Sequence record: PZ179883.1
Length of the DNA stretch: 64,000 nt
Strand: one strand, 5' to 3'
DNA from: a phage
Below, in pieces: positions 427 to 8,152 of the stretch. Position 1 is the first letter of the stretch, and each line of letters opens with the position of its first letter. The translations under genes were made by a program, and so were the position numbers. A model generated the notes under the pieces. The model was not told where the DNA came from. It searched no databases and saw only the letters and a program-made list of their open reading frames with translations.

Positions 427-789
427 TTAAAAGAATTTAAATTTTTTCTTTGACCTTTTATTAAATGCATCTTGTAGTTGCATTGTAATACATTTTTCTA
501 CATGAGGAGCTAACTCAGCTTTTCTTTCTTGGTCAAGAACAGCAAAGTCCATTACGACTTTTCCATCAACCCAATCTAATTTTGTCACATACACAATGTG
601 TGTAGAACCATCTTCTAGTTTAATGACAATCTCCTGGATAACATTTTCCATGGCAGATTTAATTATCTTAAGAGATTCATTAAAAAGACGTTCTTTTCTT
701 TCTTCTTCCCCCTCCGAAGAGGGGGATTCGTCAATAATTTCTAGATCTAAATCTAAATCATCTTTATTCATTAAATTCTTCCATATCAC
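427..789 (-). CDS. 40: gp40 head vertex assembly chaperone (by synteny)
   Basis: 120 aa ORF between uvsX and 41, the T4 position of gene 40; acidic N-terminus. Confidence 0.6.
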   Translation of the reverse strand: MIWKNLMNKDDLDLDLEIIDESPSSEGEEERKERLFNESLKIIKSAMENVIQEIVIKLEDGSTHIVYVTKLDWVDGKVVMDFAVLDQERKAELAPHVEKCITMQLQDAFNKRSKKKFKFF

Positions 790-1945
790 TTAACTGATCT
801 AGGTCAGTTTCTAAATCAGCAGCTGATTTACTTTTACTTTCTGGGGATTTAAATTTTTCAACCTTTGAGTTAATTAATTCATCAACTTCAGCTTCAACAA
901 TTTCATTACTATCAATAGCGCCTAATTGATAAGCACGTTTAATAGCATCCCGGAATGGTTGATGCTTAAATAAAGGACCCCAAAATGTAGTGCAATTGGT
1001 ATCTTTTGCACGCCAAGATTTTTCTTCGCGAATCATCTCGCCGGTTTCTTCATCAAGAAATTCACGAGCATACCAGCCATTTTTAGGTTTTACTACAAAT
1101 CCTAATTCAAGGGCCATATCTAATAATCCAGAATAAGGATCGATGCCACCATCAAATTTAACATCAATAAAGAATTTACTTTTTTCTTTGACGGTACGAG
1201 ATTTTTCTACATTTAGAACAAATTGATACCCCTGAAGATCAGAACCATCTTTAATCTGACGTTTACCGATAATGAATACAGTATCAGCCGAATACATTAC
1301 GCCTGTACCACCTGTCATCACGGTTTTACTAAACATTTCAATTGTTTCAATTGTATGGTTAACCGCAACACACGGAATGTTTTTAATACTAAAATAAGGA
1401 GTAACAATACGGAATAATGACTTCAGTGATTTAGCACGAGTCATATCTGCCACAGATTTTTCATTCAAGGCATCTTCCGTTTCTTTCTTAGAAGCCATAT
1501 TACCAATTGAGTCGATGAATACAATAACTTTTTCACCGCGCTCAATAGCTTCAAGCTGATTCACCATATCAATTTTCAGCTGTTCAACTGACTGGATTGG
1601 TGTATGAATTACTCGTTCCGGGTCAACTCCCATGGATCGCAAATAAGCTGGAGTGATACCAAATTCGCTATCATAAAATAGACAAACCGCATCAGGATAT
1701 TTGTTCAAATATGCCGCAACCATAGTCAAAGACATATTTGATTTAAAGTGTTTAGAAGGACCTGCGAAAATAGTTAAACCAGACTGCATACCGCCATCAA
1801 TCGCACCGGAAATAGCGATATTAAGCATTGGGATTTTTGTACGGATTACATCCTTTTCATTAAAGAACTTAGATGTAGTCAGTTCAGCAGTCATTTTAGA
1901 AGTGGAAGCTTTAATCAAACGGGATTTTAAATCTGCAATAGACAT
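764..1945 (-). CDS. uvsX: UvsX RecA-like recombinase
   Basis: 393 aa beginning MSIADLKSRLIKASTSKMTAELTTSKFFNEKDV, near-identical to T4 UvsX; RecA fold Walker motifs. Confidence 0.95.
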   Translation of the reverse strand: MSIADLKSRLIKASTSKMTAELTTSKFFNEKDVIRTKIPMLNIAISGAIDGGMQSGLTIFAGPSKHFKSNMSLTMVAAYLNKYPDAVCLFYDSEFGITPAYLRSMGVDPERVIHTPIQSVEQLKIDMVNQLEAIERGEKVIVFIDSIGNMASKKETEDALNEKSVADMTRAKSLKSLFRIVTPYFSIKNIPCVAVNHTIETIEMFSKTVMTGGTGVMYSADTVFIIGKRQIKDGSDLQGYQFVLNVEKSRTVKEKSKFFIDVKFDGGIDPYSGLLDMALELGFVVKPKNGWYAREFLDEETGEMIREEKSWRAKDTNCTTFWGPLFKHQPFRDAIKRAYQLGAIDSNEIVEAEVDELINSKVEKFKSPESKSKSAADLETDLDQLSDMEEFNE

Positions 1946-2022
1946 TCATTTTTTCCATAGGCATCATTATATTTTCCTCACTGGTTAAAGATAGAATAAT
2001 TATAACACAATAAATTTAGGCA

Positions 2023-2865
2023 TTAATCAACTGCTATTGGATGAATAGCATTAAACTTATGAAATGCTTCTGATTTTTCTTTACGCGAAACACACATGCG
2101 AAGAACCTTTAATGGCTCGTCTTCTTCACCCAACGATTTTCGTTTTTCAATATTCGATGTTTTCCAACGAGCTTGCTCTGGAAACTCTCTATTGATTTGC
2201 TCAAGCGCTCTATTATGTTTAGAATTACTACGAATTGAACTACATCCACCGGGAGCGTGTGATTTTCCAGATACAACTAGATATTTGAACAAGGCCAAAT
2301 GCGGATAACCTTGATTAATTAAATTGAGAAATGCATACATATCTTCGCATAAATCAATTTTTCCATACCCAATTTGTTCTGTCGTAAGTTTTCCGAGGTC
2401 ATACCATGTATTCGTGAATCCATATGAGTTTTCACGATAATTACCCCAAGATGAAGTAATTTTAAAAATTGGTAGACGAGCATGACCGTGATAATACCCG
2501 CAATCCATGGCATCTTCAACATATTGAATCAATTCATAGAACTGTTCACGAGTTAATTGATTAATTTTATCTACACGCCGTTTATCGTCTCTCTTTCGTA
2601 TTGAACTCATACGAATAGTAGTATCATCATCAATCATCCAGATTCGTTGACCTGCATACATATCAGTAATTGCTTTACGAGTACCAGCAATTCCATTAAC
2701 ATCATCAGGAATAGTTATAATTTTAGCTCTAGACCCATAAGCGTCATAATAAGCTTTTTCTTCGTGTTTACGTACTACAATATGAGGTTCATAATCAGTT
2801 GGAAACATATCAAGGGCAGAAACTGCCCCTACACGCTGATAACTTGGAATTACGAATTGAATCAT
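2023..2865 (-). CDS. Glycosyltransferase at the beta-gt locus; not T4 beta-gt-like, possibly a T2/T6-type beta-glucosyl-HMC-alpha-glucosyltransferase
   Basis: 280 aa ORF occupying the uvsX-to-42 interval where T4 has beta-gt; sequence does not resemble T4 beta-gt as I recall it. Assignment is by position. Confidence 0.5.
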   Translation of the reverse strand: MIQFVIPSYQRVGAVSALDMFPTDYEPHIVVRKHEEKAYYDAYGSRAKIITIPDDVNGIAGTRKAITDMYAGQRIWMIDDDTTIRMSSIRKRDDKRRVDKINQLTREQFYELIQYVEDAMDCGYYHGHARLPIFKITSSWGNYRENSYGFTNTWYDLGKLTTEQIGYGKIDLCEDMYAFLNLINQGYPHLALFKYLVVSGKSHAPGGCSSIRSNSKHNRALEQINREFPEQARWKTSNIEKRKSLGEEDEPLKVLRMCVSRKEKSEAFHKFNAIHPIAVD

Positions 2866-3503
2866 TTAAGTGCCTTACATTTGTCAAAATGGTATCTTGT
2901 CATATTTGGCCCACGTCCTTTTAGTCCGCAATGCGGACATATTTTTTCTATCAAATTATGAGGTTTTCCTTTACGATTTTTAGACATCGTTTCTTTAATT
3001 ATTTTAGCTTTTTCTACGCCAAAAATTTCTTCATAAGTTTTACCAGAATTTTCCTTGGCTCGATTTATAATTCCATATGCCTGCTCATTTTTACCATACA
3101 TTGGATTACCTTCGCCTTTCATTCTTTTAGAATGATCAGGACGCTTGATTCCACGAAAGGCATTTCCGCACTTATATCTTTCTTCTGGAGATAGTTTTTT
3201 ACCGTACATTCCATTTAATTTGCCTGGAAAACTTCCTCCCCATGCTTCATTCTTTAAATTATATGAATCCGGACAATTAGCAGCATCTAAACAAGTTAAA
3301 ATAATTTCTTCAACCTGTCTAAACATTGGTCCTTCATATAATATTTCTTTATTAAAGGATTTTATTCCATATTTCTTTTTAGCATGTTGCCAAACTACAC
3401 CCGAACCATCATAATTCGGGTTGTGACCATCATGACTTCCTATATACCACTTTTTAGTTTTAGGATGTTTATACTTATAAACATGTGGCACATTTACTTC
3501 CAT
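2862..3503 (-). mobile_element. Free-standing GIY-YIG homing endonuclease with C-terminal zinc-finger region
   Basis: N-terminus VYKYKHPKTKKWYIGS fits the GIY-(10 aa)-YIG motif; repeated NPMYGK-type motifs; CPHC...HFDKC zinc-finger-like C-terminus; 4 nt and 10 nt overlaps with flanking genes. Confidence 0.7.
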
Positions 3504-4234
3504 TTTCCAGTATAATCCTTTTTAGCAATATGAGTCTCACCGGTGTTCCACCAATGGTCAACTAAATAAAACTGATTTTCGTACACATGAAGACTTCCAA
3601 CGTTCCATATAATAGAACCTGCTTTATATTGCCGCGATGGGTCGCCTGCATTCAAATCAGATACTAATTTATCTAGTACGTATTTTTGCCAAGCATAATC
3701 ATTACGATAGCCTGCCCAGCAATCATTGCTTCTCATGCTAACAACCGCATTGACTTTCTTATCACGAATCAGGTACTGTACTGTATTCGTACACATGAAA
3801 TCTGACATACCATCTTTATTGTAGTCAAACTGCATAGATGGACGAGTATAAATCATGATACCACGTCGAGAATCAGGATTTTGACCAAGTTCAGCTAAAC
3901 ACATATCATACTGGGCATAGTTATCTTCTGACCAGATGGCCCAACCATAATTCGAGTTAATTTCGCCTTTAGAAGATGCTACCTGCTGCCAAATCTTTGG
4001 TGTTTCACCTGGAATATCTTTAACAAACAAACTTTGAGACTTATACCATTCAAGTTCACGCTGAATGTATTCATCATTAAGAGCGCCAAAAATAAACGGT
4101 TCATCTGCTACAAATGATGCGCCAATAATTTCAATAGTTTTAACGCCAGTTTTATCAACTACGAAATCTTTTTCTTTTAATGCAAGCCCCAAATGAAGAC
4201 GGATTTCTTCAACTGTCATAGAGTCACTAATCAT
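3494..4234 (-). CDS. 42: dCMP hydroxymethylase gp42
   Basis: 246 aa, same length as T4 gp42; thymidylate-synthase-like fold motifs. Confidence 0.95.
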   Translation of the reverse strand: MISDSMTVEEIRLHLGLALKEKDFVVDKTGVKTIEIIGASFVADEPFIFGALNDEYIQRELEWYKSQSLFVKDIPGETPKIWQQVASSKGEINSNYGWAIWSEDNYAQYDMCLAELGQNPDSRRGIMIYTRPSMQFDYNKDGMSDFMCTNTVQYLIRDKKVNAVVSMRSNDCWAGYRNDYAWQKYVLDKLVSDLNAGDPSRQYKAGSIIWNVGSLHVYENQFYLVDHWWNTGETHIAKKDYTGKWK

Positions 4235-4387
4235 TTAAACCTCAATTGATACATTCATATTTAACTTGTAACAGTAATAAACCCCAACCTAAAATAATAG
4301 TTGGAATCATAAGAGGAACCGTTACACTATAGTATATACTTATTATAATCATCAAGATTAAAAGCAACACTGCTATAATTTTGCTTT

Positions 4388-4639
4388 TCATTCCTTCTCT
4401 CTGATGATAATTACTTGATTTGGCTGTGCAGACTTTTTAGTTTCACCAGCAATTGACCAAATAAATGTAATAAACCAACCAATGATTGACCAGTTAAACA
4501 GTAAAGATGTAAAAAAGATTCCTACTGTCGATTTTGACCCACGCATCAAGGCAATGAACCAAGGAAGCATGTATATAATAATAGCCAACACACCTGAAAC
4601 TAAAACCATAAAAATTGAACCTGCTACTAAAGTTTCCAT
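4388..4639 (-). CDS. imm: Imm superinfection immunity membrane protein
   Basis: 83 aa with two hydrophobic helices; between 42 and 43 as in T4. Confidence 0.7.
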   Translation of the reverse strand: METLVAGSIFMVLVSGVLAIIIYMLPWFIALMRGSKSTVGIFFTSLLFNWSIIGWFITFIWSIAGETKKSAQPNQVIIIREKE

Positions 4640-5037: not shown

Positions 5038-5274
5038 TCAAATACAAGTAGTAATTACTCCAGTAGTGCTTACACAGGTATTACCTAATTGAACACCCAG
5101 CGTTCCATTAGTATTCATATGAAGATTATCATCAATTTTTGTTGATACTTTACCATTCATGCGAATAACAGTATTAGATTCAATCACATTCTGAGTGTCA
5201 TTTTCAATATCAATAAATGGAACAGCTGCTAATGCAACTAAACACGCTGCTAAACAACCATAAACAATTTTCAT
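5038..5274 (-). CDS. Small secreted protein (about 78 aa) with N-terminal signal peptide
   Basis: Internal start MKIVYGCLAACLVALAAV with GGAG Shine-Dalgarno; the longer ORF-track version (5038..5463) reads through an early promoter and is likely artefactual. Confidence 0.5.
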   Translation of the reverse strand: MKIVYGCLAACLVALAAVPFIDIENDTQNVIESNTVIRMNGKVSTKIDDNLHMNTNGTLGVQLGNTCVSTTGVITTCI

Positions 5275-5304
5275 TTTATTCTCCAAATCCGTATCAGTTG
5301 ATAA

Positions 5305-5360
5305 TTGTATAGTACCACGGAAGAACAGGGATGTAAACCATTTTGTGAAAAAATTTTTAA
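5305..5360 (-). promoter_or_regulatory. T4-type early promoter (TTTACA-N17-TACTAT with A/T-rich UP element)
   Basis: Minus strand -35 at about 5332-5337, -10 at about 5309-5314; upstream of the small secreted-protein gene. Confidence 0.6.
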
Positions 5361-5426
5361 TGAATTCCAGAGGTCCAGAATCATCTATTTTTCCTAAGTA
5401 TAGATTTATATTACTTGTATGAAAAA

Positions 5427-5442
5427 GGGACCCGGAGGTCCC
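5427..5442 (-). terminator. GC-rich tetraloop hairpin followed by a T-run (terminator/RNA stabiliser)
   Basis: gggacc-cgga-ggtccc with T-run on the minus strand; just 3-prime of gene 43. Confidence 0.55.
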
Positions 5443-5455
5443 TAGATTTATTCTA

Positions 5456-8152
5456 TCAGCCAAACAGGAAGTCTAACGAAGCTTTTTCCTCATAGTCCAT
5501 ACCCGCCGATTCACACATACCCGCAAGCGGTTTAACAAACGATTTTTGGAACAAAGTTGAGTAGTCAATCCAAGACAGTACATCAGAACGAATTTCTTTT
5601 GGAAGTTCCGTACCCGATGGCCAAGCAATGCACTTGTCACCAAATGGATTTCCCTCACGTAATGGAAGAACCATTACCTTATTTCCATCCAAAATTGGAG
5701 CTACACCTAAACCGCTAACAGCTCGACGATAAGTTAGCACCCCACGAATGTGGAACGGGCATTTAAATCCTGGCCAACCTTTATCGTCATATTTCGCTAT
5801 ATCGTTCGCAGTTTTTACTTCAGCAATAACTTTATAGTCAAGTTGACGATATTCTTTCTCAAAGTTCTTATAGTATTCTTGGACAGACTCTTCACCTTCC
5901 TGAAGAATGCGACGAATACTTTCTTCGAGAGCTTCTTGTACTGCTTTTGGTGTTGAACTCTGCTGAGTTTCCATACCCATGATTTTTAGATGTGGTTCAG
6001 CAAATCGTTTATCTTCCATATCATAAACGTTCAGAGCATAACGTTTTTTCGCTTTCCAAAATCCACCAACACCCTTTGAACCAAGCGGAGGACAAGAAAT
6101 AGCTTCACGGTCCATATGCATCAGATGCTCGCGGTTATTCATATAATCACATAACTCACGATATGCAACATCAATCATAGGTTCCATCTTTTTCTTACCA
6201 AACTGATTCATGAATTCAACTAAATCATTTTGTTCTTTAAAGCGATCAAGACCTACTTTTTCAATAACTTTATCTACACAAACATATACCGAATCAGTAT
6301 CACCCGCTGCGATGAAATCTTCGCCATTAGTTCCACACACCTTATTCAAGTATTCATTAATTTTACGAGCAATCCACTGAATACCAACTTGACCAAAAAT
6401 TGTGATAGCAGTAGCATTTCGCAAATCATAATAACGGAAATGAATATTACCAAGAGCACCATAAAGACTGTTGATAAGAATTTTACGGTTTAGCTGATTT
6501 GTGTTAGCAAGAGTAGCTGCTTTTTCACATTCTTCAATCAGACTATTAAGAACAGATTCGGTGTAATTCGATAATTCATTTAAGAAATCATCATTGAACT
6601 TAACATATCGTTCAACTTCTGGTTTAGTTGAACAAGACCCTGCACCTTTCATAATAATCTTTTTAATAGCTTCGGCATTCATTTCTTCGGCGAACATTTT
6701 CTTTTTCCAATCTTTACGCTGGAAAAATACTTTAGCGATTTCCTTTGGAATGATACCTTCTTGGTGCTTATCATACATCCATCCATTCGGAGAGCAAGAA
6801 TATTCATCACTTGGCTTAGGAGCTGTTCCTGCGATGTATTCATGAATTGGATGAACTTTGAACTGACCACGAATAGTTTCAGGACTAATGTTAACCTGAC
6901 GAATAATGCTAGGATACAGAGACGTCAAGTCAAAACTCATAATGTATCGACGGGCAATCGCTTTAGGTTCAAACACAAATGCACCTGGAAAACTTTGTTT
7001 AACGTGCGAACCTTGTTGAGGAATAACCTTGTGTTCACCTTTCAATGAGTTAAAAATAATAGCATCCCAAGTTTTAATAGGACTCATTACACCAGAAAAA
7101 GGCATTTTAGCGTAATAAGACATACTTAAAACTAGATCGATAAACCCACGAATTTTATCAATTGCTTGAACTGATTCTACGTCAATGATGTTATAACTAA
7201 TGTATCGTTGATGATTAGTCTCACGAAGTTTATTAATAGGACCGTCGTATGGTAATTTACCTTTTTTGGTTTCATGTTGAGCAACTGATTCCAAAGAGAA
7301 TGATGGCAAATTAGTAAATGCGAATTTTTTGTACAAATCTAAATAATCAAGAATAGATACGCCATCAATAGAATAAATTTCTTTGCTACCGTACATATTT
7401 TGAATTAGTTTAGATTTTACTCGACCGATTGGGGAGAAGCGTTTCATACTGCGTTCGCCCAGAACCATTTTAACGCGATTCATGATATACGGAACGTCAA
7501 ATCCCTCAATATTCCAACCGGTAAAAATAGCAGGTCGTTTCTGTTCCCAGAGATTAATATATTCCATGAGCATATCACGCTCATTATCAAATGGCATATA
7601 AATTACTCGGTCAAGAATTTCTTGAGGAACTTCATCACCACCTTCACAGTCAAGCTTAGCAGCTAACTTTGCATCCCATTTTGATACTGAACCGTACATT
7701 GAATTCAAAAGGTCGAAAACATAAAAACGATCATCAATTGAATCGTAATGAGTGATAGCATCAATTTCATATTCAGCTTTCATTGGGTCAGGAAATTTAT
7801 CACCAGTAACCTCAATGTCACAGTTAGCTACACGAACAAATTTTCGGTCATAAACAATTTCTGAACCATACGTATCACTGATATAAGCGAGTTTAAAATC
7901 GTTCATACCGAGAGCTTCGAGACCGATGTCTTCCATTCGCTTCATCCAATCTCGAGCATCTTTCATTGATGGAAATTTTTGAGGAGCGCAGTTTTTACCG
8001 TAGATGTCTTTGTATTTTGACTCTTCCTTACAATGCCTAAACATAGTTGGAAGATATTCTACTTCACGAGTACGTTCCTTTCCGTTTTCATCAATATAAC
8101 GTTCAACAATATTATTTCCGACTGTTTCGATAGAGATATAAAATTCTTTCAT
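5456..8152 (-). CDS. 43: DNA polymerase gp43 (family B)
   Basis: 898 aa, T4 gp43 length; exonuclease and polymerase motifs (for example DTDS); preceded by the gp43 translational operator hairpin. Confidence 0.97.
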   Translation of the reverse strand: MKEFYISIETVGNNIVERYIDENGKERTREVEYLPTMFRHCKEESKYKDIYGKNCAPQKFPSMKDARDWMKRMEDIGLEALGMNDFKLAYISDTYGSEIVYDRKFVRVANCDIEVTGDKFPDPMKAEYEIDAITHYDSIDDRFYVFDLLNSMYGSVSKWDAKLAAKLDCEGGDEVPQEILDRVIYMPFDNERDMLMEYINLWEQKRPAIFTGWNIEGFDVPYIMNRVKMVLGERSMKRFSPIGRVKSKLIQNMYGSKEIYSIDGVSILDYLDLYKKFAFTNLPSFSLESVAQHETKKGKLPYDGPINKLRETNHQRYISYNIIDVESVQAIDKIRGFIDLVLSMSYYAKMPFSGVMSPIKTWDAIIFNSLKGEHKVIPQQGSHVKQSFPGAFVFEPKAIARRYIMSFDLTSLYPSIIRQVNISPETIRGQFKVHPIHEYIAGTAPKPSDEYSCSPNGWMYDKHQEGIIPKEIAKVFFQRKDWKKKMFAEEMNAEAIKKIIMKGAGSCSTKPEVERYVKFNDDFLNELSNYTESVLNSLIEECEKAATLANTNQLNRKILINSLYGALGNIHFRYYDLRNATAITIFGQVGIQWIARKINEYLNKVCGTNGEDFIAAGDTDSVYVCVDKVIEKVGLDRFKEQNDLVEFMNQFGKKKMEPMIDVAYRELCDYMNNREHLMHMDREAISCPPLGSKGVGGFWKAKKRYALNVYDMEDKRFAEPHLKIMGMETQQSSTPKAVQEALEESIRRILQEGEESVQEYYKNFEKEYRQLDYKVIAEVKTANDIAKYDDKGWPGFKCPFHIRGVLTYRRAVSGLGVAPILDGNKVMVLPLREGNPFGDKCIAWPSGTELPKEIRSDVLSWIDYSTLFQKSFVKPLAGMCESAGMDYEEKASLDFLFG

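Follow-up and report, generated by a model that had tools for sequence, protein, structure and literature searches.

Intronless homing, as described for SegF, SegG and MobE, places cleavage inside a neighbouring gene, tens to hundreds of base pairs from the insertion, and enzymes of the SegF/SegG type have also been described as promoter-less cassettes (PMC2988022). Among the closest known arrangements are SegG beside gene 32 and SegF beside gene 56, where the endonuclease gene adjoins an essential conserved gene and the flanking allele is co-inherited. Here we analyse a similar arrangement in a stretch of 64,000 nucleotides of phage DNA (record PZ179883.1), which we call the window and whose numbering is used throughout. 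The window is from a T2/T6-like Tequatrovirus, and the gene in question, a 213-amino-acid open reading frame (ORF) that we refer to as seg, is a Seg-type gene between gene 42 and a glucosyltransferase gene, at a locus unoccupied in T4; it is no orthologue of any T4 seg gene compared. For SegF and SegG the cleavage sites and the biased inheritance have been shown experimentally, whereas for seg we infer from population and comparative data that the protein is an active nuclease, where its target lies and that it drives its own inheritance. The genes that meet at the junction are the following.

2862–3503, minus strand: seg-like ORF, 213 amino acids, ATG start (ORF list; PHROG 314; 70 homologues; AlphaFold pLDDT 87).
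3494–4234, minus strand: gene 42, dCMP hydroxymethylase, 246 amino acids (Thymidylat_synt E=1.5e-14; PHROG 160; annotated as gene 42 in relatives).
2023–2865, minus strand: gt, beta-glucosyl-HMC-alpha-glucosyltransferase, 280 amino acids (TAGT PF20691 E=8e-10; PHROG 842 E=1.5e-87).

A first-pass annotation of the window had described an ORF that overlaps both of its neighbours, and both overlaps can be read directly in the sequence, the ORF itself being in the ORF list on the minus strand. Gene 42 ends ...GGA AAA TGG AAG TAA, and the start codon of seg, an ATG, falls within this sequence (ATGGAAGTAA; 10 nt in common at 3494–3503), while the seg stop and the gt start share the 4 nt ATGA at 2862–2865, the gt Shine-Dalgarno sequence (AAGG) and ATG being embedded in the last codons of seg. 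The comparative data set out below suggest that seg probably spreads by intronless homing, in which it would cut the class I allele of gene 42 and be copied together with the class II 3′ end of the gene 42 that it accompanies. The Seg kind itself is already well known; what is modestly novel, and useful, is the way the cassette is built and its recurrence in another genus.

The expectation that seg is not a fixed part of these genomes was borne out by database comparison. In a megablast search seg DNA was found in 78 phage records, all with at least 98% identity and all at the same site, whereas the flanking DNA matches 508–546 Tequatrovirus records, so that carriers make up about 15%. Comparison of the gene 42-to-gt region with relatives that lack the insert reveals that it spans 1561 bp in carriers and 929 bp in non-carriers and, because the gene 42 stop overlaps the gt start (AAATGA) in T2 and in the Salmonella phage pSe_SNUABM_01, the insert can be defined as 632 bp with a precise empty site. 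The arrangement in T4 is different, with the order 42, beta-gt, segA, uvsX. The TAAATG found at both ends of the insert was considered as a target-site duplication and rejected, as it consists of the stop/start overlaps and leaves no clean duplication. Our literature search found no paper describing seg or a characterised endonuclease at the gene 42 locus, and the GenBank labels vary: a few records have homing endonuclease, and others SegD, segC-like or hypothetical protein. The names SegD and segC do not hold as statements of orthology, since the similarity is N-terminal only and the loci differ.

To ask what DNA travels with seg, a region of ~9 kb that reaches from gene 43 to gene 41 was aligned for 8 carriers and 11 non-carriers. 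Nearly everywhere in this alignment the divergence between the two groups equals the diversity within them, at about 0.03–0.05, which indicates that carrier and non-carrier backgrounds have been thoroughly shuffled. The exception is 3503–3760, which corresponds to the final ~250 bp of gene 42: here the divergence between the groups rises to 0.19, and diversity within carriers is 0.02. All 21 fixed differences between carriers and non-carriers lie at 3503–3641, and no seg-linked tract was detected on the gt side among these 19 phages. The DNA linked to seg is thus confined to the gene 42 side, which refines the first-pass annotation, where the gene 42/gt junction had been suggested as the region of marker exclusion. 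Among phages that come from Japan, Viet Nam, Germany, Poland, the USA and China, diversity in seg itself is 0.007–0.012, which is 3–5 times below that of the flanks. The linked allele and the clusters of differences within it are as follows.

3503–3746, minus strand: 'class II' allele at the 3′ end of gene 42, ~19% diverged from the seg-less allele, which moves with seg (divergence, fixed differences).
3707–3733, minus strand: cluster A, NDVVFGF (empty site) to NDCWAGY (carrier); candidate recognition/cleavage site.
3629–3641, minus strand: cluster B, DST to DPS; specific to Tequatrovirus and no cross-genus discriminator.
3572–3584, minus strand: cluster C, HVYSRHF to HVYENQF; candidate recognition/cleavage site, 70–80 bp from the seg ATG.

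Clustered in this way, the differences alter amino acids of conserved motifs of the gene 42 product, gp42. The tail of the gene also differs, with DYNGEWK at the empty site and DYTGKWK in carriers. Carrier gene 42 is a mosaic in which a T2-like backbone has class II patches at clusters A, B and C and at the tail only. Two natural recombinants bracket the presumed target: pSe_SNUABM_01 (locus L002, 1227–1967) has cluster A only, and Escherichia phage T4_ev151 (locus L099, 2027–2767) has clusters A–C followed by a T2-type junction, with the crossover at 3526–3536, and both are without seg. Match counts suggest that about five seg-less records have the full class II tract and about four a partial one. 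The low diversity of the cassette and these partial-conversion recombinants are compatible with preferential inheritance of seg with co-conversion of its flank. We rejected Escherichia phage BYEP02 (locus L003, 1780–1960) as a natural partial deletion; its gene 42 has a 77-bp tandem duplication, chimeric in that a carrier-type copy is followed by a T2-type one, which frameshifts the gene. The record is short (154.7 kb), and a mixed phage population has probably been misassembled.

The Tequatrovirus pattern is repeated independently in Klebsiella phages of the genus Jiaodavirus, where a seg of 70% identity is present in 13 of 157 records and the others once more have a precise empty site. The gene 42 sequences of Jiaodavirus carriers and non-carriers are 93–100% identical over the first 480 nt and 62–80% identical over the last 250 nt, with the motifs CWAGY/QNQ in carriers and VVFGY/(E/S)RH in non-carriers. 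Further afield, homologues of seg with 58–71% identity lie directly after gene 42 in the phages MHG19, Roth78, KPN6 and Mexia and in seven metagenomic T4-like contigs, while the gene downstream of seg is a T4-type beta-gt in Yersinia phage MHG19 and a different transferase in the Klebsiella phages Roth78, KPN6 and Mexia. More distant members (44–56% identity), in four unrelated genomic contexts, lie 6–52 bp after a PF00303 gene. Every family member examined directly follows a gene of the thymidylate synthase fold, whatever lies downstream.

The C-terminal region of gp42 was surveyed at 98 loci. Residues ~172–176 and ~219–221 (loci L001–L114) fall into two classes, VVFG(F/Y) with (E/S)RH and xWAGY with xxQ, which co-vary throughout the superfamily, and mixed types are rare (pSe_SNUABM_01 and locus L026). 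Where seg has at least 53% identity, every carrier has the xWAGY and (E/D/Q)(N/R/K)Q class, i.e. class II; these carriers are MHG19, Roth78 and the metagenomic loci L015–18, 21, 32, 33, 103 and 105. Loci of the VVFG(F/Y) and (E/S)RH class never have seg in this survey. The nucleotides that consistently separate class I from class II across genera are those of clusters A and C only.

Three further observations concern this junction in other phages. In some Jiaodavirus phages, namely Klebsiella phage Hyena_ER38 (locus L113, 1040–1570) and also Merci (H294), an HNH homing endonuclease of 176 amino acids occupies the same gene 42/gt junction, and it resembles seg in overlapping both the gene 42 stop and the gt start; it differs in belonging to an unrelated family and in accompanying a class I gene 42. 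The use of the junction by two unrelated nuclease families, GIY-YIG and HNH, marks it as a hotspot. In three IMG/VR T4-like contigs (L069, 3689–3892; L070; L071) an ORF of ~57 amino acids with its own ATG lies directly after gene 42. It has lost the nuclease domain and retains nothing but the final NUMOD3-like repeat with the CCHC knuckle; this mini-ORF could have arisen by decay or could encode a DNA-binding protein that acts by itself. Finally, the partial genome of Klebsiella phage vB_KpnM_GF (locus L087, 1864–2600) has a deletion of ~632 bp, from nt 631 of gene 42 to about seg codon 180, which starts just before the GSLHVY codons, truncates gene 42 and spares the part of seg that encodes the zinc knuckle. 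Either a genuine event of illegitimate repair where the cut is presumed to fall or faulty assembly may account for it.

The identification of seg as a homing endonuclease, already made in the first pass, is supported by several lines of analysis. A database search retrieved 70 homologues with E from 1e-143 to the limit of 1e-3, 58 of them below 1e-30 and far beyond chance, and PHROG 314, 'homing endonuclease', matches the full length of seg with E=2e-31. Single-sequence searches proved too weak, which made a family profile and a structure model necessary: Pfam on seg alone gave a NUMOD3 match whose 18 bits fall short of the threshold of 20.4, with no GIY-YIG at E<0.1, and the sole phmmer match among PDB sequences, to an ABC-transporter, was rejected as spurious. 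The conservation, profile and per-member Pfam results below rest on 42 homologues with identity down to 31%. The protein is divided as follows.

3228–3503, minus strand: GIY-YIG catalytic domain, residues 1–92, with Y9, Y20, E65 and N82 and without the alpha1 Arg helix (profile, Foldseek, alignment with SegA–E).
3084–3224, minus strand: linker/DNA-binding region with two NxMYGK (NUMOD3-like) motifs, residues 94–140 (NUMOD3 PF07460, conservation).
2874–2948, minus strand: CCHC zinc knuckle C189/C192/H205/C209, presumed to bind DNA (invariant ligands in 42 sequences).

The GIY-(10)-YIG module described in the first pass is present as H7-V8-Y9, ten residues and Y20-I21-G22, with the same spacing from tyrosine to tyrosine as Y6/Y17 of I-TevI; the 'GIY' triplet is degenerate, the family consensus at this position being GYVY. 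The repeated NPMYGK-like motifs and the C-terminal zinc finger also stood up to analysis, with two clear motifs at N97-GMYGK and N133-PMYGK and a finger of the form C189-x2-C192-x12-H205-x3-C209. In the alignment Y20, G22, G33, G46 and the four zinc ligands are invariant, as are G198, N200, M201, R203 and F206 of the knuckle region, while Y9, Y31, E65 and N82, together with N97, G98, M99, G101, N133, P134 and G137 of the NxMYGK region, are nearly invariant. When family members were searched singly at E≤1, NUMOD3 was found in 41 of 42 (best E=4.5e-10), SegE_GIY-YIG (PF19835) in 24 and GIY-YIG in 12.

A profile search gave a match between the seg family profile and the I-TevI catalytic domain (1LN0) with E=0.0013 over residues 5–95, pairing Y9 with Y6, Y20 with Y17, E65 with E75 and N82 with N90 (Y81-N82 with Y89-N90), and a sequence alignment revealed a Seg-type signature in common with T4 SegA–E. 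The AlphaFold model of seg has a pLDDT of 87 overall and 92–98 over residues 11–80, with strands at 7–12 and 19–24 and a C-terminal knuckle formed by a β-hairpin followed by a helix. In a Foldseek search of the PDB with this model the top three matches are to I-TevI (1MK0/1LN0, best 1MK0), with a target TM-score of 0.63–0.67, an r.m.s.d. of ~3 Å and a probability of 1.0, the E-value being only 1.3e-3. Judged by profile and predicted fold, the ORF is supported as a modular Seg-type GIY-YIG homing endonuclease that combines a catalytic domain, NUMOD3-like repeats and a CCHC knuckle. Its free-standing position in the same orientation as its neighbours, its intactness and the purifying selection described below also support this identity.

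The catalytic residues require a more careful statement. The Glu (E65) and Asn (N82) expected of the GIY-YIG fold align with those of I-TevI, while the catalytic Arg (R27 in I-TevI) has no counterpart in seg. The I-TevI segment K26–L35, which contains R27 in helix alpha1, is a 10-residue insertion relative to the seg family profile; the corresponding residues 25–35 of the seg model form a loop without a helix, and no conserved Arg or Lys is found there among the homologues. An identical gap is present in T4 SegA, SegB, SegC, SegD and SegE in an alignment of the N-terminal ~100 residues. SegA, SegB, SegC and SegE are listed as active endonucleases in Table 1 of a 2010 review (PMC2988022). The absence of the helix from SegA–E, with four of these five enzymes listed as active, therefore makes it a Seg-type trait and does not point to decay. 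As a replacement for the Arg we considered R62, which precedes E65 by three residues; it is found in SegA too but is not conserved in SegB–E, and the idea was dropped.

Over the same ~100 residues T4 SegA–E are 32–39% identical to seg and all have the signature positions YIGxH...Y.GSG.....A.KKYG...F.K.IL...E...YN.K.GG in common with it; E65 is conserved in all five and N82 is invariant among seg, the T4 Segs and I-TevI. SegA is similar to seg in its Seg-type catalytic domain (32% identity over 167 residues by BLASTP, 37% over the N-terminal ~100 in the alignment), in the Y.GSG...KKYG signature without the alpha1 Arg helix and followed by NUMOD3-like repeats, and in being free-standing, co-oriented with its neighbours and one gene away on the T-even map. 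It differs in its position between uvsX and beta-gt and in cleaving uvsX, whereas seg is at the gene 42/gt junction and its presumed target is gene 42, and the CCHC knuckle makes the C-terminus of seg different from that of SegA. Seg is not the SegA orthologue, and the phages Manna and 215Ecol030PP carry both genes. The best tblastn match of seg in T4 is segC, with 35% identity over the N-terminal 138 residues only. The CCHC C-terminus was not found in the T4 Segs over the parts compared, SegF and SegG being outside this comparison.

I-TevI is the best match to the catalytic domain and resembles seg in being modular, with catalytic and DNA-binding modules that include a zinc finger. It differs in being encoded in an intron (the td intron) and in possessing helix alpha1 with R27. 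The zinc finger of I-TevI is of the Cys4 type and lies in the linker before the helix-turn-helix, whereas that of seg is CCHC and at the extreme C-terminus, and no helix-turn-helix was detected in seg.

The seg ORF is intact in all nine carriers that were fetched, which contain 15 synonymous and 6 non-synonymous variants. Between lineages dN/dS is 0.1–0.45, the exceptions being two pairs with the most distant member (0.61 and 0.67), and these values are rough because dS is saturated. The ratios argue that seg is under purifying selection between lineages, which would keep the protein functional. For expression, neither an exact T4 late box (TATAAATA) nor a full middle-promoter pattern was found for seg, and a single loose MotA-box-like match (ATTGCTAAA) is located at 3529. 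Two other candidates were rejected: sigma-70-like sites that might serve as a promoter of its own are no commoner than in shuffled sequence, and a regulatory hairpin at the seg start is no more stable on RNA folding than shuffles (z=0.43). Seg thus appears to be a promoter-less cassette and is probably transcribed with gene 42 by read-through, and its translation would be low and coupled, because its Shine-Dalgarno sequence is weak and its start overlaps the gene 42 stop.

Polymorphism with an empty site, linkage to the gene 42 3′ end in two genera, low diversity and intactness of the ORF are directly supported, as are the domain identity and the fold, and from these the following course of events may be proposed. 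In a mixed infection of a carrier and a seg-less relative the enzyme would cut the common class I allele of gene 42 within its last ~250 bp, most likely in the sequence coding for NDVVFGF or HVY(S/E)RHF, and so at a distance of tens to a couple of hundred base pairs from the seg gene. Repair of the break from the carrier genome would copy across the cleavage-resistant class II 3′ end and usually seg as well, and conversion tracts that stop short would yield resistant recombinants without seg. Marker exclusion around the gene 42/gt junction, suggested in the first-pass annotation, is a reasonable prediction of such a cycle.

Several observations weigh against homing at gene 42, and some of them suit a different history. 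A universal association of seg with class II does not hold, as the distant members P0049 and P0055 (44–46% identity) adjoin class I-like genes. The class I/II motifs also occur without seg in many lineages (class II, for instance, in L019, L020, L022–25, L028–29 and L053–65), and because of this they may represent an old structural polymorphism of gp42. Clusters A and C, which we take probably to lie on neighbouring strands of the thymidylate synthase fold, co-vary superfamily-wide as expected for residues in contact, so that part of the co-variation may be protein co-adaptation and not immunity. Recombination among T-even phages is free, and shuffled flanks alone are no proof of homing or drive; linkage over 140–250 bp of 19%-diverged DNA could persist without selection, and the target cannot be narrowed beyond clusters A to C. 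The searchable literature contains no cleavage or cross data for the seg protein. Several of these points fit a passive passenger, in which a single ordinary recombination event with a distant phage brought seg and the 3′ end of gene 42 into Tequatrovirus (and Jiaodavirus), where they persist as a block only because 19–35% divergence suppresses crossovers, with seg having its targets elsewhere or being inactive and classes I and II being an old co-adapted polymorphism. We regard this history as unlikely. The Tequatrovirus carrier allele is a mosaic of T2-like backbone and class II patches, which implies that recombination inside the tract does occur and yet the patches stay with seg; the reduced diversity of the cassette relative to its flanks suggests a recent spread; the same association of seg with class II is found in two genera; and the ORF is intact under purifying selection.

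Other observations that count against active homing would suit an endonuclease that has lost catalysis and is retained only because gt draws its ribosome-binding site and start context from the 3′ end of seg. The canonical catalytic Arg is absent, frameshifted copies of seg are apparent in at least three records and the seg of Roth78 (locus L085), a relative of vB_KpnM_GF, is frameshifted, truncated derivatives retain only the C-terminal ~35–57 codons (L069–71, L087), and the gt signals do lie within the last codons of seg. However, all five of the T4 Segs compared lack the Arg too, including the four listed as active (PMC2988022), and a full-length ORF with a synonymous excess is found in every carrier fetched. 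Phages with the empty site express gt without seg, from an ATGA overlap with gene 42, which means that seg is not needed for gt, and this together with the conservation of Y9, Y20, E65 and N82 down to 31% identity makes an inactive remnant decidedly improbable. Least of all would we expect a domesticated function, in which the nuclease serves the phage beyond selfish homing by excluding competitors or cutting a host or parasite target. There are precedents in SegB, reported to promote amplification of anti-defence genes (PMC13096335), and in a chimeric nuclease of phage ICP1, reported to give immunity against a parasite (PMC8263062), and this locus adds no specific support of its own; against such a role, only 8–15% of genomes carry seg, and its strict coupling to the 3′ end of one gene in unrelated genomes is a homing-like pattern.

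Over 1900–4400 the best-matching record is vB_EcoM_C2-3, with 99.1% identity. On the minus strand the order is gene 43, four small ORFs (imm.1 and imm among them), gene 42, the 213-amino-acid ORF, gt and uvsX, the outer genes being the following.

5456–8152, minus strand: gene 43 (ORF list).
764–1945, minus strand: uvsX (ORF list; intact in the window).

The junction of gt and uvsX is also polymorphic, which accounts for the high diversity among carriers at window ~1260–2060. A 666-bp segA-like gene is present there in Manna (L092, 5943–6608) and 215Ecol030PP (L093, 5943–6608), while in SYGD1 (L088, 6016–7711) and pSe_SNUABM_01 (L002, 2884–3929) uvsX is shortened to 930 bp and followed by a 723-bp gene, labelled 'putative endonuclease' in pSe_SNUABM_01 and 'hypothetical protein' in SYGD1; the window itself has no segA at this junction. 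Within the first 55 nt of gt coding sequence (2811–2831, minus strand) is a GC-rich hairpin, TAGGGGCAG-TTT-CTGCCCTTG, with a T-poor tail, which is common to carriers and non-carriers, and the fPS-2 record has an annotated terminator (label g041c) somewhere in the gene 42–gt region. Between gene 43 and imm.1, the stretch 5061–5360 is hypervariable, with diversity of up to 0.2 in carriers and non-carriers against ~0.03 in its flanks, and it covers part of a 141-amino-acid ORF with a TTG start at 5038–5463.

Many GenBank records of seg are labelled 'hypothetical protein' or with the wrong T4 name (SegD, segC-like). The locus amounts to an unusually tidy natural experiment. As the cassette is found in two genera and natural recombinants bracket the likely target, the cleavage site should be easy to map, and the gene 42 sequences of T4_ev151 and pSe_SNUABM_01 are ready-made substrates for doing so. 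In phage-therapy cocktails that mix carriers and non-carriers, biased inheritance around gene 42 would be expected.

Which regions of a T-even genome are handed from one co-infecting phage to another is shaped by free-standing homing endonucleases, and the seg locus adds a Seg enzyme whose presumed target is gene 42, the maker of hydroxymethyl-dCMP. We suggest, tentatively, that this Seg family maintains a cross-genus two-allele system in the C-terminal third of dCMP hydroxymethylase, in which class II would carry cleavage-immune motifs (VVFGF to CWAGY, SRH to ENQ or QNQ). The locus also allows one to gauge how much amino-acid change can be accommodated in the conserved core of a thymidylate synthase fold that is exposed to a selfish element. 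If the two-allele reading is correct, resistant seg-less recombinants and zinc-finger stubs would represent later stages of the same cycle, and it would be conflict with a homing endonuclease that, in several phage genera, recodes and diversifies regions of an essential enzyme which are otherwise conserved.

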